Below are positions 1 through 61,949 of a stretch of DNA of 64,000 bases, in pieces. Each line of letters begins with the position of its first letter. The first letter of the stretch is position 1. The DNA lies in NCBI GenBank assembly GCA_015140255.1, contig CP043993.1, positions 143,579 to 207,578 of the forward strand, written 5' to 3'. The DNA comes from Candidatus Stammera capleta. Lineage in GTDB: Bacteria; Pseudomonadota; Gammaproteobacteria; Enterobacterales; Enterobacteriaceae. The position numbers and the translations under genes are program-made. Under the pieces are notes generated by a model. It was not told the origin of the DNA, searched no databases, and worked only from the letters and a program-made list of their open reading frames with translations.

Positions 1-391
1 TTAGATATTTATTTTTTGAATATAAATTACTAATTTTTTTTATTAAACTTCCTATAACATCATCACCTTCTACATCAGGTAAACAAAAATAATTAATATT
101 TAATATTTTTAAAAAACTTTTAATACTTGAAATATATAAAACTAATTCTCTAGAAATTTTTTTACGATTAGATTTATATTCTTTATAAATTTTTTTTCTA
201 AAATTATTTCTATCATAATCAAAAATTAGTAATAGGTAATTTGGTTTACAAAATTTGTATTTACTAAAAATCATTTTTCAAAATACTAAAAAAGATTTTT
301 TAAAATTTATTTTTTTTTTTTTATAATTTATTATATAAAAAGATTTGTAGGCATATAATGTTGCATCTATTAAAAAAAATACATTACGCAT
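1..391 (-). CDS. polA: DNA polymerase I 5'-3' exonuclease domain, N-terminal part; the gene runs off the window start
   Basis: Minus-strand ORF from ATG at 389-391. Translation MRNVFFLIDATLYAYKSFY...LLLIFDYDRNNFRKKIYKEYKSNRKK...DVEGDDVIGSLIKK matches the FEN/5'-exo N-terminus of Pol I (E. coli LVDGSSYLYRAYHA...FD..FR...YK..R...EADDVIGTLA). One in-frame TGA is read as Trp. I cannot tell whether a polymerase domain follows. Confidence 0.75.
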
Positions 392-9173: not shown

Positions 9174-9246
9174 GGGGTTATAGCTCAATTGGCAGAGCAT
9201 CTGTTTTGCAAGCAGAAGGTAAGCGGTTCGAATCCGCTTAACTCCA
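9174..9246 (+). tRNA. tRNA-Ala (anticodon UGC)
   Basis: GGGGTTATAGCTCAATTGGCAGAGCATCTGTTTTGCAAGCAGAAGGTAAGCGGTTCGAATCCGCTTAACTCCA. G3:U70 identity pair, anticodon loop TTTGCAA, homologous to E. coli alaT. No encoded CCA. Confidence 0.93.
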
Positions 9247-9251
9247 TATAA

Positions 9252-9324
<73 letters not shown>

Positions 9325-9337
9325 TATATTTAAAAAA

Positions 9338-9419
9338 GGTGGGATTCCTGAGTGGTTAAAAGGGACAGACTGTAAATTTGTTGTCATTGACTTCGAAGGT
9401 TCGAATCCTTCTCCCACCA
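9338..9419 (+). tRNA. tRNA-Tyr (anticodon GUA), long variable arm
   Basis: GGTGGGATTCCTGAGTGGTTAAAAGGGACAGACTGTAAATTTGTTGTCATTGACTTCGAAGGTTCGAATCCTTCTCCCACCA. Anticodon loop CTGTAAA. Resembles E. coli tyrU. Confidence 0.92.
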
Positions 9420-9427
9420 TTTATTAA

Positions 9428-9499
9428 GCGAGTATTTTATAATGGTTATTATTTTAGCCTTCCAAGCTAAAGATACGGGTTCGAATCCCGTTACTCGCT
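9428..9499 (+). tRNA. tRNA-Gly (anticodon UCC)
   Basis: GCGAGTATTTTATAATGGTTATTATTTTAGCCTTCCAAGCTAAAGATACGGGTTCGAATCCCGTTACTCGCT. Anticodon loop CTTCCAA. Resembles E. coli glyT. Confidence 0.9.
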
Positions 9500-9510
9500 A
9501 AGTATAATTT

Positions 9511-12102
9511 TTAGTAATATATTAAATTAACATTGTTTATTTTTATTTTAGTAAATTTTATTTCTTTTTTCTTTAAATTTGATTGATTAAAAATATTTTT
9601 CTTTGAAAAAATAATTTTATTTATTTTAATAAGTTTAAATAAATATATGTTTTCTATAAAAATTTTTTTTTTATTTAAATTTATATCTAAAATTATTAAA
9701 ATATTTATTTCTTTTTTATTTTTTTTATTTATTTTTCTTATATAAGTTATAATTTTTTGTATTGTTATAAAAATTTTTATTATATTGTGATTATTGAAAT
9801 TATTTTTATATTTAGGTAATTTAGTTTTTAATATAGAATTATTTTTATTTATTTTTTTTCATATATATTCTGTAATAAATGGAGTGATAGGGTGAGATAA
9901 TTTTAATATTTTAATAAAAATATGTGTTAGTATTAATTTATTATTTGTATTTAAACAATTATTTTTGATTTTTATTTTAGTTATTTCTATATATCAGTCA
10001 GAAAAAATATTTTTAATAAAGAAAAACATTACTTGATTAATTATATCGAATCTAAATTCTTTAATATTTTTTTTAAAATTTTTAATTAATATATTTATAT
10101 TATAATAAACTCAATATTCAGTTAAATTTAATTTATTTATATTAATTTTTTTTTTATTTATTTTAATTTTTAAATATTTAAATATAAATATATATATATT
10201 TCATATTTTATTACAATAATTAAAACTATGATTTAATTTTTTTATATCAAAATTTATTTTAATTTTTGTATTAGACATAGAACATAAAGTATGTCTTAAA
10301 ACATCTACTCCATAAGATTTAATTCCATTTGGAAAATTTTTTTTAGTATCTTTAATAATTTTACAAATTGATTTTTCTTTTATTATATTTTTAGTTCTTT
10401 TTTTAATTAATTTACTTAATTTAATACCTTTAATAATATCTATAGGATCTATTACATTACCTATGGACTTAGACATTTTTTTGCCATTTTCATCTCTTAT
10501 TAAACCTGTAAGAAGTACTTTTTTAAAAGGAATTTTTAGATAAGAATATTTTTTAGAAATATATGAACTTATCATAATCATTCTAGATATTCAAAAGAAA
10601 ATTATATCAAAACCACTTACAATTAAATTTATGGGATAAAATTTTTTTAATAAAATATGATTTTTTGGTCAACCTAATGATGTAAAAGCTCATATTGATG
10701 AAGAAAATCATGTATCTAAAACATTTGTATCTTGTTTAAGTTTATTTTTAATATTATATTTTGATAGAATTTTTTTTTTATTTTTTCCTACATATACATT
10801 ATTATTTTTATCATACCATATAGGTATTTTATGTCCTCAATATATTTGTCGTGAAATACATCAGTCTTGTATATTTTCCATTCATTTAAAAAATATTTTT
10901 TTATATTTTGTTGGAATAAAAATTATTTTTTTTTTTTTTACTAAACTAATAGCTTTTTTAGCTAAAGGATTAGTTTTTAAATATCATTGATTAGTAATTA
11001 TAATAATTAATCTAGAGTTAGTTTTATTACTTAAATATATATTAGATATTTTTTTCTTAATTTTTAGTATATATTTTTTTTTTTTTAAAAAATTAATTAT
11101 TTTTTTTTTTACATATTTAGAATTAAATTTTTTAATTTTTAATATTTTACTTATATTAATTTTTTTTTTTTTTTTTCATTTATAATTTAATATTTTAATT
11201 TTTTTTTTAAATGATCCATCTAAATTATAAATATTAATAATATCTAAATTAAATTTTTTACAATAAATTAAATGATTTATTTTATGTCCAGGTATAATTT
11301 TAGTATATTTTTTTTTTTTTGAATATTTAATTTTTTTATTATATATTATTTTAATGATATTTTTTGTTAAAGGATTAATTAATTTTTTACCTATTAATTT
11401 TTTATTTTTATTTTTTATTCCTAATGCTATTGTTCCTAACAATAATTCTGGTTGAGTAGTTTCTATTATTATAAAATCATTATTTTTTAAAAAATTTAAT
11501 TTTATAAAATAATTTTTTAATATTTTTTTTTCTTTATTAATTTCTAAATCTGATAAAACACATTTAATTTTTTTATCTCAATACATAGCTTTTTTAGTTT
11601 TATATATTAATTTTTTTTTATATAAATATATAAAAATTTTTTGTACAGATTTAGTAAAATTTTTATCTAATGAAAAACATGTATTAGATCAGTCTACAGA
11701 ACTACCTAAAATTTTAGTTTGTTGATAGATTTTTTTTTCGTGTTTTTTTTTTCATTTTCATATTTCATTAATAATTTTTTTTTTAGATATTTTTTTTAAT
11801 GTTTTATGTTTTTTTTTTATATAATTTTCTACAATTATTTGTGTAGATATACCAGCATGATCTGTACCCATTATTCATAATGTATTGTATCCAGACATTT
11901 TTTTATACCTTATTATTAGGTCCATAATAATTTGCTGAAATGCATGACCTATATGTAAATATCCAGTTATATTAGGTGGTGGCATAATTATAGAAAAATT
12001 TTTTTTATTATTTTTATTTATATTTGGTTTAAATAAATTATTTTTTTTTCAGTATGAATAAATTAATTTACATTTTTTTATATTTAAATTATTTTTTTTC
12101 AT
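9511..12102 (-). CDS. valS: valyl-tRNA synthetase
   Basis: ATG at 12100-12102 down to TAA (tta on the plus strand) at 9511-9513. I checked the frame triplet by triplet over most of the gene: many in-frame TGA, no TAA or [21 protein letters not shown] (HIGH region with the PPP triplet), [35 protein letters not shown] (KMSKS). 863 aa. Confidence 0.93.
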
Positions 12103-13565
12103 TTTTTTTTAATATAATTAATTAAGAATTGCACAATTATGTTTATTGGTTGACCTGTAGACCCATTATTATTATATGCTGTTCCAGCAATATCAATATG
12201 TGCTCATTTATATTTTTTAGTAAAATAAGATAAAAAACATGCAGCTATAATTGTTCCTCCATATATTGTATTTGAACAATTTTTAATATCTGCTATATTT
12301 GATTTTAAATATTTTTTATATTGACTAAATAAAGGTAGTTCATGTATATTTTCTTCTATTTCTAAACTAGATTTTATTAAACAGGAAGATAATTTTTTAT
12401 TATTTGATAATAAACCATTTATTTTGTTACCTAATGCTATAGCACATGATCCAGTAAGAGTTGCTATATCTATAACAAATTTAGGATCATATTTTTCAAC
12501 ATAAGTTAATACATCACATAATATTAATCTTCCTTCTGCATCAGTATTAATAATTTCAATATTTTTTTTAGATAAAGTTTTTATAATATCTCCAGGTTTA
12601 TTAGAATTACCATTTATCATATTTTCTGCACATGCTAATATACCTATTAAATTAATTTTTATATTTAATTTGGATATTATGTATATAATTCCGTATATAG
12701 ATGCTGCTCCTGACATATCATATTTCATTTTGTACATATTTTGTGATGTTTTTAATGATATTCCTCCTGTATCAAATGTAACACCTTTACCTATTATTAC
12801 TATAGGTTTCATATTTTTATTATTATTGTATTTAATTTGGATCATTAATGGTTTATTATAAGAGCCTTTATTAACTGATAAATATGCATTCATACCTAGA
12901 GATGACATTTTTTTTTTATCTAAGCAAGAAATTTTTATTTTTGGATGTCTAATTTTATTATTTATTTTTTTATATATATATGTAGAATTACATATATTTG
13001 GTGGTGTATTACATAAGTTTTTAGAAATTTTAATTCCTTTAAATATTATTAATGATTTTTTAATAGCTTTTTTAGTTAATATATATTCTCTTTTGTTTTT
13101 TACTAAAAAATTTATTTTTATATCTTTATATTTATTATTTTTTTTATTTTTAAATTTATCAAATAAATAGGTTTTTTTTTTAAATATTTTAATAATATTA
13201 AATATTTTTCAATATATTTTTTTTTTAATTTTTATTTTATTTAAAAAATAAATTATATTTTTATAATTATATTTTTTAATGATTTTAAAAGAATTTTTAA
13301 TGATTTTTAAAAATATATTTTTATTTATTTTTTTTTTTTTTCCACATCCTATTAAAATACAATCTTCTTTTTTAACTGAATTTATATCTTTTATAATTAA
13401 ATGTGTATTTATTTTACCTTTAAAATTATATTTTTTAATTTCTTTTAAAATTAAATTATATTTTAGAATATTTTTTTTTATTTTATCATTTTCATATATA
13501 TTTATTATTGCGCATTCATTTTTTTTATAATAATTTTTTTTTTTTTTAAATATTTTGTATTTCAT
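12084..13565 (-). CDS. pepA: leucyl aminopeptidase (M17, PepA)
   Basis: Pieces 13209-13565, the middle segment and 12204-12908 share one frame. VTFDTGGISLK, NTDAEGRLILCD, and after TGA 12204: W-AHIDIAGTAYNNNGSTGQPINIIVQFLINYI. Under code 4 the frame reads through TGA 12099-12101 to TAA at 12084-12086, overlapping the valS start by 19 nt. Confidence 0.9.
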
Positions 13566-13663
13566 ATTTTTATAATTTTATTGTTTAATTTTTATGTTTA
13601 AAAGTGATAATTTATTAATTATAATATAATTTAGAAGTTTTTATTAATTTATTTATTAAATAT

Positions 13664-14236
13664 ATGAATTTAAAAGATATTTTTTTTATAGGTAATAATA
13701 TTATTTATTTAAATGAACCCTATAAAATAGAATTTATTGATTTTATTAAGCCAGGTAAAGGTCATGAATTTATACGTACTAAAATAAGAAATTGAATTAC
13801 AAATAAATTAATTACTAAAACATTTAAATTTTTTAGTAATATAAAAAAAGCTAATATTTATATTGATAAATATTTATATATATATAATTTAAAAAATTAT
13901 TGGTATTTTTTAAATAAATGTAATTATCATCAAATTTCTTTATCTAAAAAAATAGTTAATAAGTATATTTCTTTAATATTTATAAATAATTTTTATAAAA
14001 TTGTATTTTGAAATAATAATCCTATAAATATAATATTACCTAAATATGTAATATTAAAGGTAATTAAAATTTATTTTGATAAAAAAGATTATTCTTTTTC
14101 TAATATTAAATATGTAAAATTAGTTACTGGTTTAAAAATAAAAGTTCCTAATTTTATTAATATAGGAGATATTATTAAAATAGATACAAAATATTTTTCT
14201 TATAAATCTCGTGTTAATAATTTTAATTATATATAA
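13664..14236 (+). CDS. efp: elongation factor P
   Basis: ATG 13664 to TAA 14234-14236, 190 aa. The loop FIKPGKGHEFIRTKIRNW(TGA) matches the E. coli-type VKPGKGQAFARVKLR. C-terminal GDIIKIDT..Y.SR. Confidence 0.88.
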
Positions 14237-14368
14237 AATAATTTATTATTTTTATTTTTATTAATATATATTTTTTTTTTATATTATATTTTTTATAATA
14301 ATAAATATATTTTAAATAAATATTTAATTTATTAAGTTAAATTTGTTATATAAATTTTCGGAGTTTTT

Positions 14369-15094
14369 ATGTTAGAAAATAAGAAAATTTTAATTGTAGA
14401 TGATGATATAGAATTAATATCTATTTTAAAAAATTATTTAAGTAAGTATAATTTTAATGTAAAAAATGTTATAAATTCTATTCAGATGCAAAGATTATTA
14501 GTTAGAGAAATATTTCATTTAATTATATTAGATTTAGTTTTACCTGGTGAGGATGGTTTATCAGTATGTAAAAGATTACGTAGTGAAGATAATTTTATTC
14601 CTATAATTATAGTAACTGCTAAAAATGATGATATAGATCGTGTTATAGGTTTAGAAGTTGGTGCTGATGATTATATTTCTAAACCTTTTAATCCTAGAGA
14701 ATTATTAGCTCGTATAAGATCTCTATTAAGACGTCAATATTATGAAACATCAAGTATATCATTATTTAAAGAAGATATTATAGTAAAATTTGGTAATTGT
14801 GAATTAAATTTAATTACTAGAGAAATGTTTAAAAATAATAAAAAAATTTTTTTAACTAGTAGTGAATTTTCCATATTAAAAGTTTTAATAAATAATGCTA
14901 AAAAACCTTTATCTAGAGAAAAATTAATGTTTTTAGCTAGAGGTAAAGAATATAATGCTATAGAAAGATCCATAGATGTACAAATATCAAGATTACGTCG
15001 TTTAATTGAAAATAATTCTTTTAAACCTAGATATATACAAACTGTTTGAGGTTTAGGTTATGTTTTTGTACCAGATAGTAATAATATACAATAA
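14369..15094 (+). CDS. ompR: OmpR-family response regulator, OmpR orthologue
   Basis: 241 aa. KILIVDDD, FHLIILDLVLPGEDGLSVCKRLRS, PIIIVTAK..DRVIGLEVGADDYISKPFNPRELLARIRSLLRRQ, and SIDVQISRLRRLIENN...PRYIQTVW(TGA 15047-15049)GLGYVFVPD are almost block-for-block E. coli OmpR. The phospho-acceptor Asp, the acidic pair and the KPF Lys are all present. Confidence 0.93.
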
Positions 15095-15126
15095 ATTTAT
15101 TTAAATAAATTATTTTGTTTAGTTTA

Positions 15127-15165
15127 TAAGATATTTTTTTAAAAAAAAATTAAAAAAATATCTTA
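15127..15165. terminator. Perfect 14-bp inverted repeat (16 bp with two extra A:T pairs) between convergent ompR and tRNA-Trp; candidate bidirectional terminator hairpin
   Basis: Left arm taagatattttttt at 15127-15140. Right arm aaaaaaatatctta at 15152-15165 is its exact reverse complement. A-rich loop. Almost pure A/T, so the stem is weak. Confidence 0.3.
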
Positions 15166-15170
15166 CTTTA

Positions 15171-15243
15171 CAGGGGTAGAAGGATTTGAACCTTAACCTA
15201 TGATTTTGGAGACCATTATTCTACCGGATTAAACTATACCCCT
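15171..15243 (-). tRNA. tRNA-Trp (anticodon CCA)
   Basis: Minus strand AGGGGTATAGTTTAATCCGGTAGAATAATGGTCTCCAAAATCATAGGTTAAGGTTCAAATCCTTCTACCCCTG. Homologous to E. coli trpT (AGGGGCG..., discriminator G). Anticodon loop CTCCAAA. D-stem is GTTT/GAAT, giving a U11:A24 pair. No encoded CCA. Confidence 0.9.
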
Positions 15244-15245
15244 AA

Positions 15246-15318
15246 TAGGTCTAAGCGGATTTGAACCACTGACCTCACCCTTATCAGGGGTGTGCTCTCG
15301 CCGCTGAGCTATAGACCT
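15246..15318 (-). tRNA. tRNA-Ile (anticodon GAU)
   Basis: Minus strand AGGTCTATAGCTCAGCGGCGAGAGCACACCCCTGATAAGGGTGAGGTCAGTGGTTCAAATCCGCTTAGACCTA. Close to E. coli ileT. Anticodon loop CTGATAA. Lies 2 nt from tRNA-Trp. Confidence 0.93.
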
Positions 15319-15448
15319 ATATAATTATCTTTAAGAGAAAGTATAACAAATTTAAATTTTAAAGTCACTATTAATATTTACATTATTTATTTAATTTATA
15401 AATTATTTATTATAATATAGTATATTATTAATTAAAATTAATAAATTT

Positions 15449-15796
15449 ATGAAAGATGAAAATATATTTAAAAAAATTGTTTCTGGTAAAATAAAAACAA
15501 AAATTATTTATAAAGATAAAGATGTAACTGCTTTTTATGATATTAAACCTAAATCATTAGTACATATAATTATTATACCTAATATTTATATAAAAAATAT
15601 GAATGAAATAAAAAAAGAACATATTATTATTTTAGGTAAAATGTTATATATATCTTCTAAAATAGCAAAAAAAAAAGGTATTAGTAAAAATGGATATAGA
15701 ATAGTAATAAATTGTAATAAACATGCTGGGCAAGAAATATTTTATTTACATATACATTTATTAGGAGGTAATTATTTAGGTGATATAGTAAATTAA
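15449..15796 (+). CDS. hinT: HIT-family purine nucleoside phosphoramidase HinT
   Basis: 115 aa. IFKKIVSGKI, VTAFYDIKP..LVHIIIIPN, GYRIVINCNKHAGQEIFYLHIHLLGG (histidine triad). Confidence 0.9.
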   Translation: MKDENIFKKIVSGKIKTKIIYKDKDVTAFYDIKPKSLVHIIIIPNIYIKNMNEIKKEHIIILGKMLYISSKIAKKKGISKNGYRIVINCNKHAGQEIFYLHIHLLGGNYLGDIVN

Positions 15797-15827
15797 TAAT
15801 TAATAGTATTAAACAATCAATAAATAT

Positions 15828-17522
15828 ATGAAAACAAGAAAATATTCTTTATTTACTTCTAAAAATATCTCTTTAGATAAAAATAGTAATTATATATATA
15901 ATTTAATGATAAAAGGAGGTATTATACGTAAATTATCATCTGGTATATATATATGGTTACCAAATGGTATTAAAGTTATTAATAATATTATTAATTTGAT
16001 TAGAAATTATTTTGATAAAATTAATGCTATAGAAGTAAATATGCCTATTATACAACCTTCTTATATATGAAATAAAAGTGGTAGATTATTAGAATATGGT
16101 CAAGAATTATTTAAATTTTATGATAGAAATAATAAATTATTTATTATATCACCTACACATGAAGAAATTATTACTAAATTAATAAGTGATGAAAATTTTA
16201 ATTTAAATTTTTATCCTAAAATTTTTTATCAAATACAAAAAAAATTCAGGGATGAAATTAGACCTAAATTAGGTCTTATAAGATTACGTGAATTTTTTAT
16301 GAAAGATGCCTATTCTTTTCATAATTCTTTAGAATGTTTAGATAAAACTTATTTTAAAATATTTAATGTATATAAAAATATTTTAAGTAATTTAGGTTTG
16401 AATTTTTTTTATAAAAAAGCGAATTGTGGAAATATAAAAGGTTTTTTATCTCATGAATTTCATATATATTCTGATATTGGAGAAAATAAAAATTTTATTA
16501 GTAAAAAAAAAATATGTAATTATTCATATTTTTTTAAAAAAAGAAAAATTAATTATTTCTCTATTAGAAATAATAAAAGAATTAAATTATTTAATATAAA
16601 TAATTTTAAAGAATTTGATAAAAAATATAATTTTTTAAAATATAAAAAAATAGTTAAAACTTACTTAGTAGAATTAGTAAATAAAAAAAAATCTTTTTTT
16701 TTATTGGTATTAATACCTTTAAATAAAAAAATAGAAATTTTTAAATTATATAAAATTTATTCTTATGTAAATAAAATAATTATATGAAATAAAAATCATA
16801 TTTTTTCAAAATTTAAATTTAGGTCTATGTTTTTAGGACCATTTTTAAATTATAAAATTATTTCTGATTTTTCTTTAATAAATACTAAAAATTTTATTAC
16901 TGGTGCTAATAAAGAAAATTTTTTTTATATTAATGTTAATTGATTTATTAATATAAATGTAAGTGGTTTTTATGATATATGTAGAAATACAAATTTTTTT
17001 TTATTTAAAAATAATAAAAAAAATAAAAAAGAAACAAAATCTACTGAAATAGCACATATTTTTAAATTAGGTAATTATTATTCATCTATTTTTCATAATA
17101 ATTATTTTTTTAATAAAAAAATTTTTATGGGTTGTTATGGGATAGGAATAACTAGACTAATATCATGTTTAGTAGAAAATTATCATGATAATAATGGTAT
17201 TATATGACCTTTATTAATTTCTAATTTTAAATTAGGTATATTACCTATTAATATAGGTAAATCTAAATTAGTCCATAATATTTCTATGGAAATATATAAT
17301 TTTTTAATTAAAAAAAATATAGATGTTTTATTAGATGATAGAGAATTATATATAGGGGAAATGTTTAATGATTTAAATTTAATTGGTATTCCTAATTTAC
17401 TAATTTTAAGTGAAAAAAATTTATTACTTGGTTTGGTAGAATTTCAAGATAGATTAAATAAAATTCAGAGATTTATTTATATAAATGATATATTTAATTA
17501 TTTATTAAATAAATATAATTAA
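15828..17522 (+). CDS. proS: prolyl-tRNA synthetase
   Basis: Pieces 15828-16070, 16299-16787 and 17286-17522 plus their connectors share one frame, joined by TGA. IRKLSSGIYIWLPNG, W-NKSGRLLEYGQELFKF, SPTHEEIIT, FYQIQKKFRDEIRPKLGLIRLREFFMKDAYSFH, MGCYGIGITRLI. 564 aa. The central (editing) region is low complexity. Confidence 0.92.
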
Positions 17523-17527
17523 ATTAT

Positions 17528-18829
17528 TTATTTAATTCATTCTATTATTCAATTTTTTTTTTTAGGTTCTCCTTCTTCAGTAATAAAAATATTTGGACAT
17601 AAAATAGGTTTATCATTGTAAAAAATTATAGGCATATGTTTTCTTAATCATGGAAAAACTTTTTTTTCTTGTCATATTTTTTTAATTTTTTTAAATTTTT
17701 GATTTTTTATTTTTATTTTATTTTTTATTTTAAATTTTATATAAATAGATTCATTTTTATTAATTTTTCTAATTAAATTTTTATTTTTTTCTTGAGATTT
17801 TATTATTTTTAAATAACCATTTTTATTTGGTAAATGAAATTTTTTTTTAATATTTTTTCATAAAAATGATGTTTTACTGGTATTTTGATATTTTTTAGTT
17901 AAATATAAATTATTTTTGTATTTATTAATTATAAATTCTTTAAAAATAAACTGTAAATAATTATTTTCTTTATATTTTATTATTTTTTTTCACATATTTT
18001 TCATTAATTTATATGAAATCATTTTTTTTTTATTTTTTTTTATTCATATTCTGGTAATAATGAATTTTTCATCATTATTTAATGAAATTATATTTTTTAA
18101 TTTTAAAGAATTTTTGTGTTTATTTTTTTCTTTTATTTTTTTTTTAAATATTTTATTTAATAGTTTTTCTTGTTTAAAACATATTTTAGCACTTCTATAT
18201 ACTGATGATATGAAATATGGTCATTTTTTAGTTAATTTTTTAATTATTGATAATCTTAAAAAATTTCTTTCTAATTTAATATTATTATTACTACTATCTT
18301 CTATTCATTTTAATTTTTTTTTTTTTGCATATTTTTTAATTTTTTTTTTACTAATTTTTAATAAAGGTCTATAAATAAAATTATTTTTATTAATTTTAAT
18401 TTTTTTTTTTATTCCTGATAAACCTTTAGGTCCACTACCTCTTTTTAAAGCTAAAAAAAAAGTTTCACATTGATCATTTTTATGGTGTGCTGTTAATATT
18501 ATTTCATTATTTAATATATTTTTTTTATATATTGAATATCTTATTTTTCTTAAATTACATTCTATATTTTTTTTTATTTTTATATATATTTTTTTTGTGA
18601 TTAATTTAATATTCAATTTTTTACATATTTTTTTACAATGTTTTGATCATTTATCAGATAATGGATTAATATTATGATTTATATGTATTGCTCTTATATA
18701 TATTTTTTTTTTTAATGATTGTGTATATAATTCATGTAATAATACAGTAGAATCTATTCCTCCACTAAATCCAACTAAAAAATATTTATATTTTTTAATT
18801 AACAAAGTAATTTTTTTTTTTATAGACAT
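17528..18829 (-). CDS. tilS: tRNA(Ile)-lysidine synthase
   Basis: ATG 18827-18829 to TAA (tta) at 17528-17530. Frame checked across the whole gene: only TGA interruptions. PP-loop FLVGFSGGIDSTVLLH; LTAHHKNDQCETFFLALKRGSG. 433 aa. Confidence 0.9.
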
Positions 18830-18833
18830 AATA

Positions 18834-19280
18834 TTATTTTATACCTGTATGTCCAAAACCTAATTTATTTCTTTTTGTTTTATTTTTAAATTTATTGACT
18901 ATAGAAAATTTTACTTTTCATATTGGTATAAATATTATTTGAGCTATTCTATCTTTATTTTTAATTTTGAAAGGTTTTTTACTTCTATTTAATAATGGAA
19001 TTATAATTTCTCCTTGATAATCTGAATCTATAATACCTATACTATTACTTAATATAATACCATTTTTATGTCCTAATCCTGATCTTGGAACAATTAATCC
19101 AGTAATATTTTTTTTTTTAATATATATTTTAATTCCGGTTTTTATTAATTTTGTTTCTAAAGGTTTTAAAATTATATTTTTTTTTAAATATGCTTTAATA
19201 TCTAGTCCTGATGCTCCATTGGTCATATATTTTGGTATTCATGAATTTTTATGAATTTTAAATATTTTAATTTTTTTCAT
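18834..19280 (-). CDS. dut: dUTP diphosphatase
   Basis: ATG 19278-19280 to TAA at 18834-18836. GASGLDIKA, PRSGLGHKNGIILSNSIGIIDSDYQGE, RIAQIIFIPI-W(TGA 18918), C-terminal LGFGHTG. 148 aa. Confidence 0.92.
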
Positions 19281-19337
19281 TGTTTTTAATATTAAATTAT
19301 ATTAATATATATAATATTATATTTTATAAATATAAAT

Positions 19338-19409
19338 GGGTCGTTAGCTCAGAGGTAGAGCAGTTGACTTTTAATCAATTGGTCACAGGTTCGAATCCTG
19401 TACGACCCA
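19338..19409 (+). tRNA. tRNA-Lys (anticodon UUU)
   Basis: GGGTCGTTAGCTCAGAGGTAGAGCAGTTGACTTTTAATCAATTGGTCACAGGTTCGAATCCTGTACGACCCA. Near-identical to E. coli lysT-type tRNA. Confidence 0.93.
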
Positions 19410-19420
19410 AAATAATTTTA

Positions 19421-26328: not shown

Positions 26329-27528
26329 ATGAAATTTTATCTTGTTGGTGGAGCTGTAAGAGATAAATTATTAGGTATAAATATTAGAGATAAAGATTGA
26401 GTAGTGATTAATTCTTCATATAAAGAAATGATTGATTTAGGTTTTAAAGCTGTAGGTAATTATTTTCCTGTTTTTATTCATCCTATAACTAAAGAAGAAT
26501 ATGCTTTAGCTCGTACAGAAAAAAAAATTGGTTTAGGATATAATGGTTTTATATGTGATTTTTCTAATAAAATTACTTTAAAACAAGATTTATTTCGTAG
26601 AGATTTAACAATTAATGCTATAGCATTAGATGATAAAGGTAATTATTATGATCCTTATAAAGGTATAGAAGATATTAAAAATCGTATTATAAGACATATT
26701 TCTCATTATTTTTCTGATGATCCATTAAGAGTTTTTAGAGTAGCTCAATTTTATTCTCGTTTTTTAAATTTTAATTTTTCTATTTATCCTAAAACTTTAT
26801 TTCTAATGAGTAAAATATCATCTTCGGGTGAATTATTATCTTTAAGTGTAGAAAGAATTTGAATAGAAACTAAAAAAGTTTTAAAAAATTATAATATTTT
26901 CTGATATTTTAATATTTTAAATAAATGTAAAGCTTTAAAAATAGTTTTTCCAGAAATTATTTTTTTATTTAGAGATAATATTAAAAAACAATATTTTAAT
27001 TTATTATCTATTAGATTATTACATTTAAAATGTAGTACAAAATTAAATTTTTCTTTTGTCTGTTTTTTTTTTTATGAAACAATTTTATCAAAAAATTTTT
27101 TTTTAAATAAAAATTTTTATTTTTTAAAAATAAAAAATTTTTGTAAAAGATTATGTATTCCTAAAAAATATTTTTTATCATTTAAATTTTTATATAAATT
27201 TTTACTTAAGATTTTTTTTTTAAATAAAACTAAATTAGTTCAATATATTTTAGATATTTTTTATGAAATAGATATATGACGTAAACCTAAAATTTTATGA
27301 GATATTATAAGTATAATGAATATTTTTCAATTGTTACCTTTAAAAAATAAATTTTTCTTTTTATTTTTAAAAAATTATTTATTAGATATTTATAATACTA
27401 TTTTTATAATTAAAAATAAATATATAATTAAATTGGGTTTTAAAGGTATTGAAATAGGTAAGAAATTATATGAATTACGTTTTAAAAAAATTTTTTTTTT
27501 TATAAAAGAAAGAATAAATAAAAGTTAA
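26329..27528 (+). CDS. cca: CCA-adding tRNA nucleotidyltransferase
   Basis: [24 protein letters not shown](TGA)VV, FPVFIHPITKEEYALARTEKK, RRDLTINAIALDD, DPLRVFRVAQF. Pieces at 26329, 26404 and 27316 share one frame, 399 aa. The region aligned to the E. coli HD motif (LCHDLGK, HHGHG) reads FVCFFFYETILSK, so the HD phosphohydrolase signature appears lost. Confidence 0.9.
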
Positions 27529-45995: not shown

Positions 45996-46069
45996 GGCTA
46001 CGTAGCTTAGTTGGTTAGAGCACAGCACTCATAACGCTGAGGTCACAGGTTCAATTCCTGTCGTAGCTA
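45996..46069 (+). tRNA. tRNA-Met, elongator (anticodon CAU)
   Basis: GGCTACGTAGCTTAGTTGGTTAGAGCACAGCACTCATAACGCTGAGGTCACAGGTTCAATTCCTGTCGTAGCTA. The body matches E. coli metT rather than ileX or initiator tRNA. The Leu-Gln-Met order echoes the E. coli metT-leuW-glnU operon. Confidence 0.85.
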
Positions 46070-46091: not shown

Positions 46092-47426
46092 ATGTGTGAA
46101 AAAGTATATATAAAAACTTGAGGTTGTCAAATGAATCATTATGATTCAAATAAAATCAAGGTATATTTAAGTAATTATATAAATTATTCATTAGTCTATT
46201 GTTTAGATGAAGCAAATATAATTATATTAAATACTTGTTCTGTACGACAAAAAGCTCAAGATAAATTATTTTTTTTTCTTGATAGAATTAAAAATATTAA
46301 AAAATTTAAAAATAATATAATTGTTGCTGTAGGTGGTTGTGTATCAATGCAAGAAAAAGAAAAAATTTTTTTACGTAGTAATATAGTTGATATAATTTTT
46401 GGTCCACAAACTTTACATAAAATTTATGATTTTATTTTAAAATTTAGAAAAAATAAAAAAAAAATTATTGACATAAATTTTTCTGGTATAGAAAAAAATA
46501 TTGATTTACCTAATAATATAAATTTAAATTTTAATAGAAGATCTTTATCTTATGTTTCTATTATGGAAGGTTGTAATAAATTTTGTTCTTATTGTATTGT
46601 TCCTTATACTAGAGGTAGAGAAATAAGTAGATCACCAGAGAATATAATTTCTGAAATATGTAGATTATCTTTATATGGAGTTTCTGAAATAAATTTATTA
46701 GGTCAAAATGTTAATGCGTATAATGGTATTTTAAAAAATAATAAAAGATGTGATTTTTCTTACTTGTTAAAATTAATTTCTAATATAGATGGTATTAAAA
46801 GAATTAAATTTACTACTAGTCATCCTAATAATTTTACTGATAAATTAATTAATACTTATAGTAAGATTAGTAAAATAATTAATTTTTTACATTTACCTAT
46901 TCAAAGTGGTTCAGATAATATTTTAAAAAAGATGCGTAGAGGTTATACTACAGATTATTATAAAAATTTAGTTAAAAAAATTTTATGTGTAAGAAAAAAT
47001 ATGATTTTTGGTTCTGATTTTATAGTTGGTTTTCCTACTGAAAGTATTGAAGATTTTCAATTAACTTTAGATTTAGTATCAAAAATAAAATTTGATAATA
47101 GTTTTGTATTTATGTATTCACCTAGACCACATACTAAATCTTTTAATGTATTAGATGACGTAAGTATAGAAGAAAAAAAGAATAGGTTATATAAAATTAA
47201 CGATTTACTTTATAAGAATTCTATTTATTGAAAAAATAAAATGATTAATTCTATACAAAAAGTATTAGTTGAAGGTGTTTCTTCAAAAAATTTAGATTTT
47301 TATTTTGGTTATACTGAAAATAGTAAAATTGTTTATTTTAAAGGTTATAAAAATTTATTAGGTCAATTAATTAAAATAAAAATTATAAAATTATATAAAA
47401 ATTATTTATATGGTGTTTTAATTTAG
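46092..47426 (+). CDS. miaB: tRNA-2-methylthio-N6-dimethylallyladenosine synthase MiaB
   Basis: MCEKVYIKTW(TGA)GCQMNHYDS, NTCSVRQKAQDK, radical-SAM CNKFCSYCIVPYTRGRE, LHLPIQSGSD, FIVGFPTES. Joins track ORF 47241-47426 (TRAM domain) through TGA. 444 aa. Confidence 0.94.
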
Positions 47427-60965: not shown

Positions 60966-61949
60966 ATGAAAAAAAAACTTTTTAGTGCCATACAGCCTAG
61001 TGGTGGTGTTACTATAGGTCATTATATAGGAATTTTAAAAAAATGATTTTTAGTACAAAAAAAATATAATTGTTTTTATTGTATAGCAGATTTACATTCT
61101 TATACTAATAATTTTAAAAAAAAAAAAAAATATATATTAGATATATTATCTATAATATTAGCTCTAGATATAGATTATAAGAAAAACATTATTTTTTTAC
61201 AATCTCATATTTATGAACATACTCAATTATATTGATTATTTAATTGTTGTTCTTATATAGGTGAATTAAAACGTATGACACAATTTAAACAAAAATCTAA
61301 AAAAAATAAATTTATTAATTGTGGTTTATTTACTTATCCTATATTAATGGCAGCTGATATATTATTATATAACTCTAATTATGTTATTATAGGTCAAGAT
61401 CAAGTTCAACATTTAGAATTTACATGTAATATTGCTAAAAGAATTAATAAATTATTTAGTAAAAAAATATTTTTTTTACCTAATTGTATTTTTTCTTCAT
61501 GTTCTAAAGTAATGTCTTTATTAAATCCTAAAAAAAAAATGTCTACATCAGATATTAATAAATTTAATGTTATTTATTTATTAGATAATTTGGATTTAGT
61601 TACTACTAAAATTAATAATTCTTTTACTGATAGTGATGTTCCTGCAAAAATTATTTTTGATATGGTTAAAAAACCTGGAATATCTAATTTATTAAATATT
61701 TTATCTAATATTAGTGATATATCTATTTTAGATTTAGAAAATAAATTTATTGGTTATTCTTATAAAGAATTTAAAAAAATAGTAATTAATAAATTAATAA
61801 ATTTTTTAAAATTATTACAGAAAAGATTTTTTTTCTTTCGTAAAAAAGAAAAATTTTTAAAAAAAATTTTATTAGAAGGTAAAAGAAAAGCTAAAATAGA
61901 AGCTAAAAAAAATATGTTTTTTATTAAAAAATTATTTTTTGATATTTAA
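60966..61949 (+). CDS. trpS: tryptophanyl-tRNA synthetase
   Basis: LFSAIQPSGGVTIGHYIG, FYCIADLHS, GELKRMTQFKQKS, YPILMAADILLY, IGQDQVQHLEF, KKMSTSD (KMSKS). A 15-A run at 61116-61130 is in frame. 327 aa. Confidence 0.93.

Follow-up and report, generated by a model that had tools for sequence, protein, structure and literature searches.

The turning of stop codons into sense codons is one of the classic problems of genetic-code evolution. Most bacterial cases in which UGA has come to specify tryptophan are explained by a tRNA-Trp with the anticodon UCA, and those of Zinderia and XS4 by an anticodon stem of four base pairs. Candidatus Stammera capleta lives as a symbiont in tortoise leaf beetles and has a genome of about 0.3 Mb. 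Recent surveys list it as using code 4 with a "normal" 5-bp-stem tRNA-Trp(CCA) and no tRNA-Trp(UCA), and no explanation is offered. How, then, is UGA read in this organism? Some Stammera lineages use the standard code, others are transitional or fully recoded, and very few positions of tRNA-Trp distinguish them; the question of whether changes in the tRNA body are responsible is therefore directly testable. The tRNA-Trp gene was analysed in a stretch of 64,000 nucleotides of the Stammera genome (the window; contig CP043993.1, positions 143,579 to 207,578) and compared with those of related lineages. The original prediction for this gene was that UGA decoding relies on a change in the tRNA body, namely A24, rather than on the anticodon.

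Code usage in the window and in related lineages

The GC content of the window is 17%. The excess of UGA over UGG as Trp codon noted before was confirmed: open reading frames of at least 250 aa contained 110 TGA and 11 TGG codons and ended in TAA or TAG only. rpoB and rpoC were intact under code 4 alone, with three and nine in-frame TGA codons, respectively. At Trp columns conserved among 19 related genomes, the window had TGA at 44 and TGG at 4 (about 92% TGA), and UGA made up about 90% of the Trp codons in its lineage.

tRNA-Trp was recovered from 19 Stammera lineages, four of which use code 11 and 15 code 4. The code-4 group includes a transitional lineage (L044, GCA_036689315.1) with 4 TGA and 34 TGG at conserved Trp columns. 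In the code-11 lineages (L043, CP144787.1; L046, CP144771.1; L048, CP144777.1; L049, CP144774.1) no TGA and 41-47 TGG were found at these columns, and TGA serves as stop in efp, nfo and proS. The number of conserved Trp columns was about 48 in both code groups, and Trp avoidance was not seen.

The tRNA-Trp gene and its surroundings

A single tRNA-Trp, with the anticodon CCA, was found among the 12 tRNA genes of the window by both ARAGORN and Rfam (RF00005, 62.2 bits, minus strand). The Rfam match and the correct cloverleaf both cover 15171-15243, in agreement with the original prediction; the ARAGORN limits, 15170-15244, were one base off at each end. Read on the minus strand, the gene is AGGGGTA TA GTTT AATCCGGTA GAAT A ATGGT CTCCAAA ATCAT AGGT TAAGG TTCAAAT CCTTC TACCCCT G. 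The overall sequence is clearly homologous to E. coli trpT, and the discriminator is G73. The cloverleaf parse bore out the reading of the anticodon and of position 24, which is A in the window and G in E. coli trpT.

The D-stem is GUUU/GAAU, compared with GUUC/GAGC in E. coli trpT, and holds the wobbles G10-U25 and U13-G22 and no G:C pair. The anticodon arm has five nominal pairs, a single G:C among them, with A27 and U43 paired and a loop of 7 nt. The T-arm, previously described as slightly irregular, has a U49-C65 mismatch in its stem and A59 in its loop. Position 9 is A, so the A9C change is absent. The 3' CCA is not encoded in the gene. CCA ends are missing from the tRNA genes and have to be supplied by the CCA-adding enzyme listed in Table 1. 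ARAGORN also identified tRNA-Gln(UUG) and tRNA-Lys(UUU), as expected from the earlier reading of U34 in these boxes.

Table 1. Positions in the window of tRNA-Trp, its parts and the features related to it.
Feature	Position	Strand	Basis
tRNA-Trp (trnW), anticodon CCA, 73 nt	15171..15243	-	ARAGORN; Rfam; cloverleaf parse
Anticodon C34 C35 A36 (TGG on plus strand)	15207..15209	-	ARAGORN; cloverleaf parse
A24, paired with U11 (15233); Hirsh-like state	15219..15219	-	Cloverleaf parse; lineage comparison
U40, wobble pair with G30 (15213)	15203..15203	-	Cloverleaf parse; lineage comparison; stem energies
Anticodon arm AUGGU-CUCCAAA-AUCAU	15200..15216	-	Cloverleaf parse; nearest-neighbour energy
tRNA-Ile(GAU), directly upstream of tRNA-Trp	15246..15318	-	ARAGORN; Rfam
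Perfect inverted repeat, 16 nt, 7-nt loop	15127..15165		Repeat search
TilS, lysidine-34 synthetase	17528..18829	-	NCBIfam TIGR02432 N-terminal domain, 185 bits vs cutoff 94
CCA-adding enzyme	26329..27528	+	NCBIfam NF009813 (2e-113), NF008137 (1e-98), both below curated cutoffs
MiaB, ms2i6A37 methylthiotransferase	46092..47426	+	NCBIfam TIGR01574, 485 bits vs cutoff 355
Tryptophanyl-tRNA synthetase (TrpS), charges tRNA-Trp	60966..61949	+	NCBIfam TIGR00233, 276 bits vs cutoff 177

The adjacency of tRNA-Ile(GAU) and tRNA-Trp was kept in 19/19 Stammera loci, and the two genes are probably co-transcribed. tRNA-Trp and ompR converge on the inverted repeat, which lies in the gap separating their 3' ends and may be an A+T-rich bidirectional terminator hairpin; it was not called as a terminator by a G+C-based terminator scan. 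OmpR of the window is 69-98% identical to the OmpR of 11 Stammera genomes, an identical protein is encoded on an NCBI contig of 301,995 bp, and an ATP synthase operon is also present in the window. A betaproteobacterial symbiont such as Nasuia or Zinderia, which the low GC content and code 4 would also have suggested, was rejected on account of this operon and of the OmpR matches. A tRNA(CAU) of the window was considered as tRNA-Ile2, the substrate of TilS, and was rejected, as it looks like elongator tRNA-Met instead. In E. coli, the MiaB pathway modifies tRNAs with an A36-A37-A38 context, which tRNA-Trp has. By analogy, tRNA-Trp would be a MiaB substrate in Stammera.

Reading of UGA in the absence of tRNA-Trp(UCA)

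No tRNA with a UCA anticodon was found by ARAGORN or Rfam among the tRNA genes of the window, or in eighteen 20-kb loci of Stammera relatives. The window is about 21% of a genome of about 302 kb, and an unrecognised second tRNA-Trp(UCA) that reads UGA could in principle lie outside it. Such a gene is extremely improbable, since three independent papers report none in Stammera: tRNA-Trp(UCA) is absent from each of 49 genomes in PMC13462651 (Table 2) and likewise in PMC10540940 Table 2, and Stammera is described as "always lacking" it in the gTranslate preprint. UGA reading by Stammera without tRNA-Trp(UCA) is an already known fact. Since UGA occurs in frame where Trp is conserved and a UCA tRNA is lacking (whole-genome absence taken from the literature), the window represents a near-cognate-only UGA decoder, and the CCA tRNA must therefore read UGA via a C34-A mismatch. 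The CCA anticodon is kept and a UCA tRNA is lacking, and to this extent the original proposal of a basis other than the anticodon stands.

UGA reading would instead be cognate-like if C34 were modified post-transcriptionally to an A-pairing base, either lysidine made by TilS or another. TilS, the only C34-modifying enzyme in the window, is retained and apparently full-length, and the loop of tRNA-Ile2 (E. coli ileX) differs from the tRNA-Trp loop CUCCAAA only at positions 35-36. However, TilS is required in any case to decode AUA. E. coli-type TilS uses the acceptor pairs C4:G69 and C5:G68, whereas the window tRNA-Trp has G4:C69 and G5:C68. Lysidine would moreover block the reading of UGG, yet TGG is present at 4/48 conserved Trp columns, and it would probably disturb recognition by TrpRS. 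A modified C34 is thus considered very unlikely.

The gene for release factor 2 (RF2), prfB, was not among the genes of the window, which is about a fifth of the genome. It is reported in 15/49 Stammera assemblies and absent in 34/49, and only 5 of the 15 use code 11 (PMC13462651; gTranslate preprint). Some code-4 strains (about 10 assemblies) thus read UGA as Trp while carrying an RF2 gene, which speaks for a tRNA that can hold its own against this factor. This bears on the reading that no tRNA adaptation has taken place: slow UGA reading by any tRNA-Trp(CCA) would be tolerated by a slow-growing symbiont once RF2 was lost or weakened, and A24, U40 and the other A/U changes would be neutral or slightly harmful results of A+T pressure and drift. 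Background UGA readthrough by wild-type E. coli tRNA-Trp is consistent with such an explanation, as is the symbiont Providencia siddallii PSAC, in which UGA is Trp with a nearly unchanged trnW(CCA) (PMC10540940). All substitutions in the Stammera tRNA-Trp relative to E. coli run from G/C to A/T, and tRNA-Trp is the most variable of seven shared tRNAs (30 variable columns vs 9-20). On the other hand, GCUC/GAGC D-stems are kept in other tRNAs of the same genome, and roughly nine in ten Trp codons are UGA, with no sign that Trp is avoided. Together with the position 40 data below, these observations make a wholly unadapted tRNA rather unlikely.

Position 24 and the Hirsh suppressor

The Hirsh suppressor (su+9), the classical UGA suppressor, is a G24A change in E. 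coli tRNA-Trp, and A24 of the window is the same nucleotide state. In the original prediction A24 was the possible enabling change, and its occurrence in relatives with the standard code that lack UGA readthrough had been set beforehand as refutation. Its occurrence in such standard-code relatives was observed. A24 was present in 19/19 Stammera tRNA-Trp genes, including those of the four code-11 lineages, all with U11:A24. A24 is therefore older than the recoding and, being shared by standard-code relatives, cannot alone explain it. As a cause of UGA reading, A24 would be expected only where UGA is read, and in Stammera it was found also where UGA is a stop. The conservation of U11:A24 carries no information, since the pair does not vary at all and is what A+T mutational bias would favour.

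The possibility that G24A is nevertheless the key adaptation, with U11:A24 alone letting CCA read UGA and thereby enabling and sustaining the recoding, has some points in its favour: A24 in the window where E. coli has G24, the lack of a UCA tRNA in Stammera, and the classical suppressor itself, which Fakih et al. 2026 also took as their positive reference. It is improbable, however, because the four code-11 lineages combine A24 with the absence of TGA from conserved Trp columns and with TGA stops. Natural tRNA-Trp(CCA) genes moreover often have U11:A24, which was present in 101/106 GAAC-type matches in viral contigs, among the matches listed. In viral contigs both A24 and G24 were abundant, overwhelmingly as U11:A24 and C11:G24, among the matches listed. 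Zinderia tRNA-Trp(CCA) has C11:G24, though UGA is read there with the CCA tRNA alone.

In bacteria, 2,414 of 3,438 tRNA-Trp(CCA) genes with a 4-bp stem were excluded by Fakih et al. 2026 (PMC13092985) for A9C and/or G24A. As a marker of the code switch A24 was ruled out by the four code-11 lineages, and in annotation UGA recoding should not be called from A24 by itself. Judged from the gene sequences, A24 is at most a permissive background or pre-adaptation. In such a role it may allow readthrough of UGA in the standard-code lineages.

Position 40 and the anticodon stem

Among seven tRNAs (Ala, Thr, Tyr, Gly, Trp, Ile and Lys), position 40 of tRNA-Trp was the sole column that split the code groups, with C in 4/4 code-11 lineages and U in 15/15 code-4 lineages. 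The pair G30:C40 of code-11 Stammera is thereby replaced by the wobble G30-U40 in code-4 Stammera. The 27:43 pair was U:A in the standard-code lineages and A:U in the clade of the window, and the transitional lineage combined U40 with a U27-U43 mismatch. Nearest-neighbour energies of the 5-bp anticodon stem-loop, computed for unmodified, isolated hairpins, were +0.2 kcal/mol for code-4 Stammera, -2.2 for code-11 Stammera, -3.1 for Zinderia and -5.4 for E. coli. The G30-U40 wobble is thus predicted to leave the anticodon stem marginally stable. C40U also runs in the direction of the mutational bias.

From these alignments, a tie between the position 40 change and the recoding is suggestive. As a control, sets of four were picked arbitrarily from the deep lineages, and 5 of 15 such sets also gave one "diagnostic" tRNA column. 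Chance columns of this kind are hence not rare, as an unadapted tRNA would lead one to expect. Against such an explanation, A+T pressure could have turned G30 into A and so re-formed a Watson-Crick pair, but the G30-U40 wobble was kept in 15/15 recoded lineages. As few as one or two events in evolution may underlie the association of C40U with code 4. Neighbour-joining trees built from 14-19 proteins and rooted on the atp genes of E. coli supported two splits only, the main clade from six deep lineages and L048 with L049. Because the deep lineages were not separated, independent C40U events could not be counted. Protein columns were left out as a branch-length background, as they were confounded by genes missing in some lineages.

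Proposed mechanism

On balance, it is considered somewhat more probable than not that the sole CCA tRNA reads both UGG and UGA via a C34-A mismatch with the help of a loose tRNA body, A24 being an earlier, permissive change and the anticodon-stem changes coinciding with the recoding. The ribosome would accept the C34-A mismatch at the third codon position for UGA. This acceptance would be helped by a D-stem without G:C and with U11:A24, by A59, and by an anticodon stem with a single G:C and G30-U40. A24 and/or U40 would then raise UGA reading, and C34 is presumably unmodified. A G24A/C27A/G59A triple mutant was reportedly described by Ortiz-Meoz and Green in 2010. Precedents for body changes that let CCA read UGA are Hirsh G24A, A9C and, in E. 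coli in vivo, C27A (Fakih et al. 2026, PMC13092985). McCutcheon et al. 2009 proposed that UGA recoding begins with a distal mutation in tRNA-Trp, and A24 could correspond to this "distal mutation" stage in the ambiguous-intermediate model. Coincident with recoding are the changes in the anticodon stem, namely C40 to U in every recoded lineage and the turnover of 27:43.

A stronger and more doubtful form of this proposal is that UGA in Stammera was reassigned purely by loosening the body of the sole tRNA-Trp, and that the intermediate stages are still alive in different beetle hosts. In the first stage, code 11 and RF2 would go with a tRNA body that has C40 and the Hirsh-like U11:A24. In the second, C40U and an unpinned U27-U43 would accompany the use of UGA for about 10% of Trp codons (GCA_036689315.1), and in the third, 27:43 would be re-paired as A:U, with G30-U40 kept and about 95% UGA. 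If true, nature would have a third way of reaching code 4, beside the UCA anticodon and the 4-bp anticodon stem, and the "ambiguous intermediate" would be represented by a series of living lineages. In that case the G30-U40 wobble would be a newly recognised determinant of third-position C-A misreading.

Comparison with known systems

The Stammera tRNA-Trp shares with the Hirsh suppressor the unchanged CCA anticodon, the U11:A24 pair in the D-stem, reading by a C34-A mismatch and homology to trpT. In contrast to the suppressor, A24 of Stammera is a natural fixed allele in the only tRNA-Trp of the cell, arose before UGA was recoded and is found in four lineages that still use UGA as stop. The rest of the Stammera D-stem is also altered (G10-U25, U13-G22, no G:C). 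A parallel to the code-11 lineages is Bacillus subtilis, whose tRNA-Trp(CCA) has a natural U11:A24 under the standard code and reads UGA at a low level, as Lovett et al. are said to have reported in 1991. Unlike recoded Stammera, B. subtilis has kept UGA as stop.

With the 4-bp-stem category (Fakih et al. 2026; Zinderia), in which the uppermost pair of the anticodon stem, 27:43, is open and the loop has 7 nt, Stammera has in common a near-cognate CCA tRNA as sole UGA decoder, the lack of tRNA-Trp(UCA) and a weakened anticodon stem, which in code-4 Stammera is predicted to be less stable than that of Zinderia. The transitional lineage is the only one with an unpaired U27-U43. The window tRNA differs in that A27:U43 is paired, and Stammera is listed with a 5-bp anticodon stem by Fakih et al. 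2026 (PMC13092985). Here the weakening comes from the mid-stem G30-U40 wobble and from A:U richness. The category is moreover defined by the presence of neither A9C nor G24A, and A24 places the window tRNA outside it. The systems with a cognate tRNA-Trp(UCA), those of Mycoplasmatales, Hodgkinia, Nasuia and mitochondria, resemble Stammera in code 4, in UGA and UGG as Trp and in their reduced genomes, but Stammera has the anticodon CCA.

Providencia siddallii PSAC, a leech symbiont in early code 4 with trnW-CCA and prfB, is likewise a symbiont of the Enterobacterales in which UGA has become Trp with CCA kept, and it supports a stepwise ambiguous-intermediate model (PMC10540940). The window lineage stands at the far end of such a series, with about 92% of conserved Trp columns TGA and prfB reported lost in most strains, whereas the transitional lineage, with TGA at 4/38 conserved Trp columns, resembles the early stage seen in Providencia.

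The tRNA-Trp gene and its surroundings

Twelve tRNA genes were identified in the window by ARAGORN, among them a lone tRNA-Trp(CCA), encoded on the minus strand with tRNA-Ile(GAU) immediately upstream of it. The Rfam tRNA model yielded no additional tRNA in the window beyond these 12. The tRNA-Trp gene scored 62.2 bits with this model and reads, from 5' to 3', AGGGGTA TA GTTT AATCCGGTA GAAT A ATGGT CTCCAAA ATCAT AGGT TAAGG TTCAAAT CCTTC TACCCCT G. The ends listed in the table are supported by Rfam and by alignment with the E. coli gene. ARAGORN placed them at 15170-15244, one base further out at either end with a shifted acceptor register, and a one-base end ambiguity was also seen in several other tRNAs of related loci. 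In two other Stammera lineages, L003 (CP144834.1, code 4) and L046 (CP144771.1, code 11), A1:U72 of tRNA-Trp is replaced by a G1-U72 wobble (acceptor GGGGGUA).

Positions of the features discussed
Feature	Window coordinates	Strand
tRNA-Trp	15171-15243	minus
Anticodon CCA of tRNA-Trp	15207-15209	minus
A24 of tRNA-Trp	15219	minus
U11 of tRNA-Trp	15233	minus
Discriminator G of tRNA-Trp	15171	minus
ompR and the stretch up to tRNA-Trp	14354-15170	
Inverted repeat, putative terminator	15127-15165	
tRNA(CAU)	45996-46069	
Seven shared tRNA genes	9174-19410	

Re-reading of the gene confirmed the original prediction in the placing of the anticodon, A24, U11 and the discriminator G. The D-stem of E. coli K-12 trpT is GUUC/GAGC with a U11-G24 wobble, so that U11:A24 is the state made by the Hirsh mutation, G24A, as had been proposed.

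ompR is located directly next to tRNA-Trp in the window and its clade, where envZ has been lost. In L042, L043, L044, L046, L048 and L049 a sensor-kinase gene (~10700-12030) is found between the two. This envZ-like kinase of the deep lineages is 368-437 aa long and has a HATPase_c domain, with or without HisKA. As no sensor kinase is adjacent in the window's clade, the window OmpR is an orphan response regulator, though it is conserved at 89-98% within the clade. A perfect 16-nt inverted repeat, TAAGATATTTTTTTAA / TTAAAAAAATATCTTA with a 7-nt loop, is placed where the 3' ends of tRNA-Trp and ompR face each other. It resembles a terminator and, being purely A+T, was missed by a G+C-based terminator scan.

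Genetic code of the window

The window has a GC content of 17.4%, and rpoB, rpoC and other long genes run unbroken only with TGA translated. In ORFs of at least 250 aa, 110 in-frame TGA codons were counted vs 11 TGG, in line with the earlier observation that UGA outnumbers UGG as Trp codon, and the stop codons were TAA or TAG only. The OmpR-type regulator beside the tRNA had matches in 11 Candidatus Stammera capleta chromosomes (~0.3 Mb, 69-98% identity) in a database with one genome per GTDB species, which identifies the window as Stammera.

Stammera is an Enterobacterales symbiont of tortoise leaf beetles. Use of code 4 in Stammera is listed in PMC8629427 with credit to Salem et al. 2017. 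The table of Manzano-Marin et al. 2023 gives Stammera as lacking prfB, with a trnW reading UGG and with UGA in 62% of the CDSs. Among 49 Stammera genomes, Parks et al. 2026 (PMC13462651) reported tRNA-Trp(CCA), no tRNA-Trp(UCA), and prfB in 15. According to the gTranslate preprint, five basal genomes retain code 11 and prfB, and tRNA-Trp(UCA) is 'always' missing in code-4 strains, some of which have prfB; in the literature prfB is missing from most code-4 strains, yet present in about ten. That UGA is read in Stammera by a tRNA with a CCA anticodon is thus a genuine paradox, and one already documented. No mention of A24 in Stammera was found in the papers searched.

UGA could have been read by a hidden second tRNA-Trp with a UCA anticodon, a possibility raised in the original prediction. 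This is contradicted by three papers, and no tRNA with a UCA anticodon was found in the window or in the scanned ~20-kb loci of its relatives. Modification of C34, e.g. by the TilS encoded in the window, found no support: UGG is still in use, and the acceptor pairs of tRNA-Trp are unlike those that E. coli TilS is known to use. The window tRNA(CAU) was considered as the TilS substrate tRNA-Ile2 and rejected because of its close likeness to E. coli elongator tRNA-Met (GGCTACGTAGCT...); tRNA-Ile2 must therefore be located outside the window.

Codon use and A24 across Stammera lineages

With OmpR homologues as handles, a region of ~20 kb surrounding the syntenic tRNA-Ile and tRNA-Trp genes was collected from eight further lineages, giving a total of 19. 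Codons were counted in 19 aligned orthologous proteins, at columns with Trp in at least 70% of the lineages.

Codons at conserved Trp columns
Lineages	TGA	TGG	Assignment
14 lineages including the window	42-47	0-5	code 4
L044 (GCA_036689315.1, CP144790.1)	4	34	transitional
L043, L046, L048, L049 (CP144787.1, CP144771.1, CP144777.1, CP144774.1)	0	41-47	code 11

The few TGAs within code-4 frames of the last four lineages are located before the start, at the orthologue end or at one conserved Cys position. TGA is found where orthologues end in efp and nfo of L048 and in proS of L046, and so works as a stop there. Codon use in these lineages matches the published code-11 basal clade. The TGA Trp codons of L044 (4/38 conserved Trp columns) are in leuS, efp and, twice, proS; its atpA ends in TGA with another stop codon immediately after. 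The Cys position is in the essential gene tilS of L043 (GCA_036689305.1), a lineage that otherwise follows the standard code; TGA there replaces a Cys conserved in the other 18 lineages (KHC to KH-TGA; alignment column 85, ~15510-15520 in locus coordinates). In public gene calls tilS is broken up into a 63-aa and a 127-aa piece. The TGA could reflect an error in sequencing, a pseudogene or reliance on UGA readthrough with A24 tRNA-Trp and RF2.

Anticodon CCA and A24 opposite U11 are shared by all 19 tRNA-Trp genes, those of the four code-11 lineages included. A24 is therefore older than the reassignment and occurs where UGA is still a stop. The proposal that A24 suffices for UGA reading, and so caused the recoding, had the Hirsh suppressor in its favor and is contradicted by this sharing of A24 with standard-code relatives, an outcome that the original prediction itself had listed as refuting. 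At most, A24 could have been a pre-adaptation.

IMG/VR was scanned with exact patterns for genes resembling tRNA-Trp(CCA) whose D-stem 3' strand is GAGC or GAAC (loci L051-L290). Among the matches listed, U11:A24 was seen in 101/106 GAAC genes, C11:G24 in 113/119 GAGC genes and the E. coli-type U11-G24 wobble, on which the Hirsh mutation arose, in only 5/119 G24 genes. The 11:24 pair was nearly always Watson-Crick in these matches. U11:A24 is likewise found in the tRNA-Trp of B. subtilis, which reads UGA only weakly. Zinderia, the other code-4 symbiont with only a CCA tRNA-Trp, has C11:G24. Since U11:A24 is common in nature and Zinderia lacks it, A24 is an ordinary natural state, neither necessary nor sufficient for recoding. 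In Fakih et al. 2026 (NAR, PMC13092985), 2,414 of 3,438 tRNA-Trp(CCA) genes with a 4-bp stem were excluded for A9C and/or G24A.

The anticodon stem

Seven tRNA genes common to all 19 loci (Ala, Thr, Tyr, Gly, Trp, Ile, Lys) were aligned. Position 40 of tRNA-Trp was the sole column dividing the codes, with C in 4/4 code-11 and U in 15/15 code-4 lineages. With C40U, the G30:C40 pair at the center of the anticodon stem becomes a G30-U40 wobble. Five of 15 arbitrary four-lineage subsets of the six deep lineages also had a diagnostic tRNA column of their own, so one such column for the code partition is not remarkable by itself, and C to U follows the mutational bias. It is suggestive that the column falls in the anticodon stem of the only tRNA with altered decoding. 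No more than two splits were supported in neighbor-joining trees, L048+L049 and the separation of the 13-member main clade from six deep lineages; L042, L043, L044 and L046 branched in no supported order, and C40U may thus represent one event or several.

The 27:43 pair also varied, being U:A in the code-11 lineages and L042, A:U in the window's clade, G-U in L011 and a U-U mismatch in transitional L044, where it leaves a genuine 4-bp stem. A change from U:A to A:U needs a mismatched intermediate, and U-U is one such. The L044 gene (12012-12085, minus strand) combines U40 and this mismatch on the A24 background. tRNA-Trp was the most variable of the seven tRNAs (30 variable columns vs 9-20 for the other six); the others retain G+C-rich GCUC/GAGC D-stems despite a 17% GC genome.

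Nearest-neighbor energies of the 17-nt anticodon arm, which ignore modifications and tertiary structure, were +0.2 kcal/mol for the window tRNA-Trp, -2.2 for code-11 Stammera, -3.1 for Zinderia and -5.4 for E. coli. In full-length minimum-free-energy folds the anticodon stem was absent for the window tRNA-Trp and present for a code-11 sequence.

Judged from these sequences, A24 and a D-stem without G:C pairs are ancestral to Stammera, and U40 is confined to recoded lineages among the 19 examined; the anticodon stem of the window tRNA-Trp is predicted to be very weak. UGA would be read through a C34-A mismatch at the third codon position. A flexible D-arm and hinge, A24 included, and a labile anticodon stem with G30-U40 could lower the barrier to the near-cognate codon; A24 would have been permissive, and the shift would have coincided with the stem changes. 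With G24A, A9C or 27:43 unpinning, E. coli tRNA-Trp is known to read UGA better. Genes for TrpS, MiaB, TsaD, MnmG, TilS and CCA-adding enzyme were also found in the window by profile search. ms2i6A37 helps E. coli tRNA-Trp to read UGA, a finding credited to Petrullo et al. 1983, and the MiaB gene suggests that this modification is retained in Stammera. Passive decoding after loss of RF2, with every substitution neutral, is plausible as well. Against it, prfB is kept in some code-4 strains, and G30-U40 is kept in 15 lineages though the bias-favored G30 to A would compensate.

Comparison with known systems

Standard-code, transitional and recoded strains form a natural series in Stammera, and the lineage comparison gives a new, testable lead in C40U and the turnover of 27:43. 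McCutcheon et al. 2009, citing Hirsh, put forward a distal tRNA-Trp mutation as a possible first step in UGA recoding. Fakih et al. 2026 explained Zinderia through a 4-bp anticodon stem, and merely listed Stammera as a code-4 bacterium with a 5-bp-stem tRNA-Trp(CCA). The window tRNA-Trp is a case of near-cognate decoding of UGA by tRNA-Trp(CCA), a known type of decoding.
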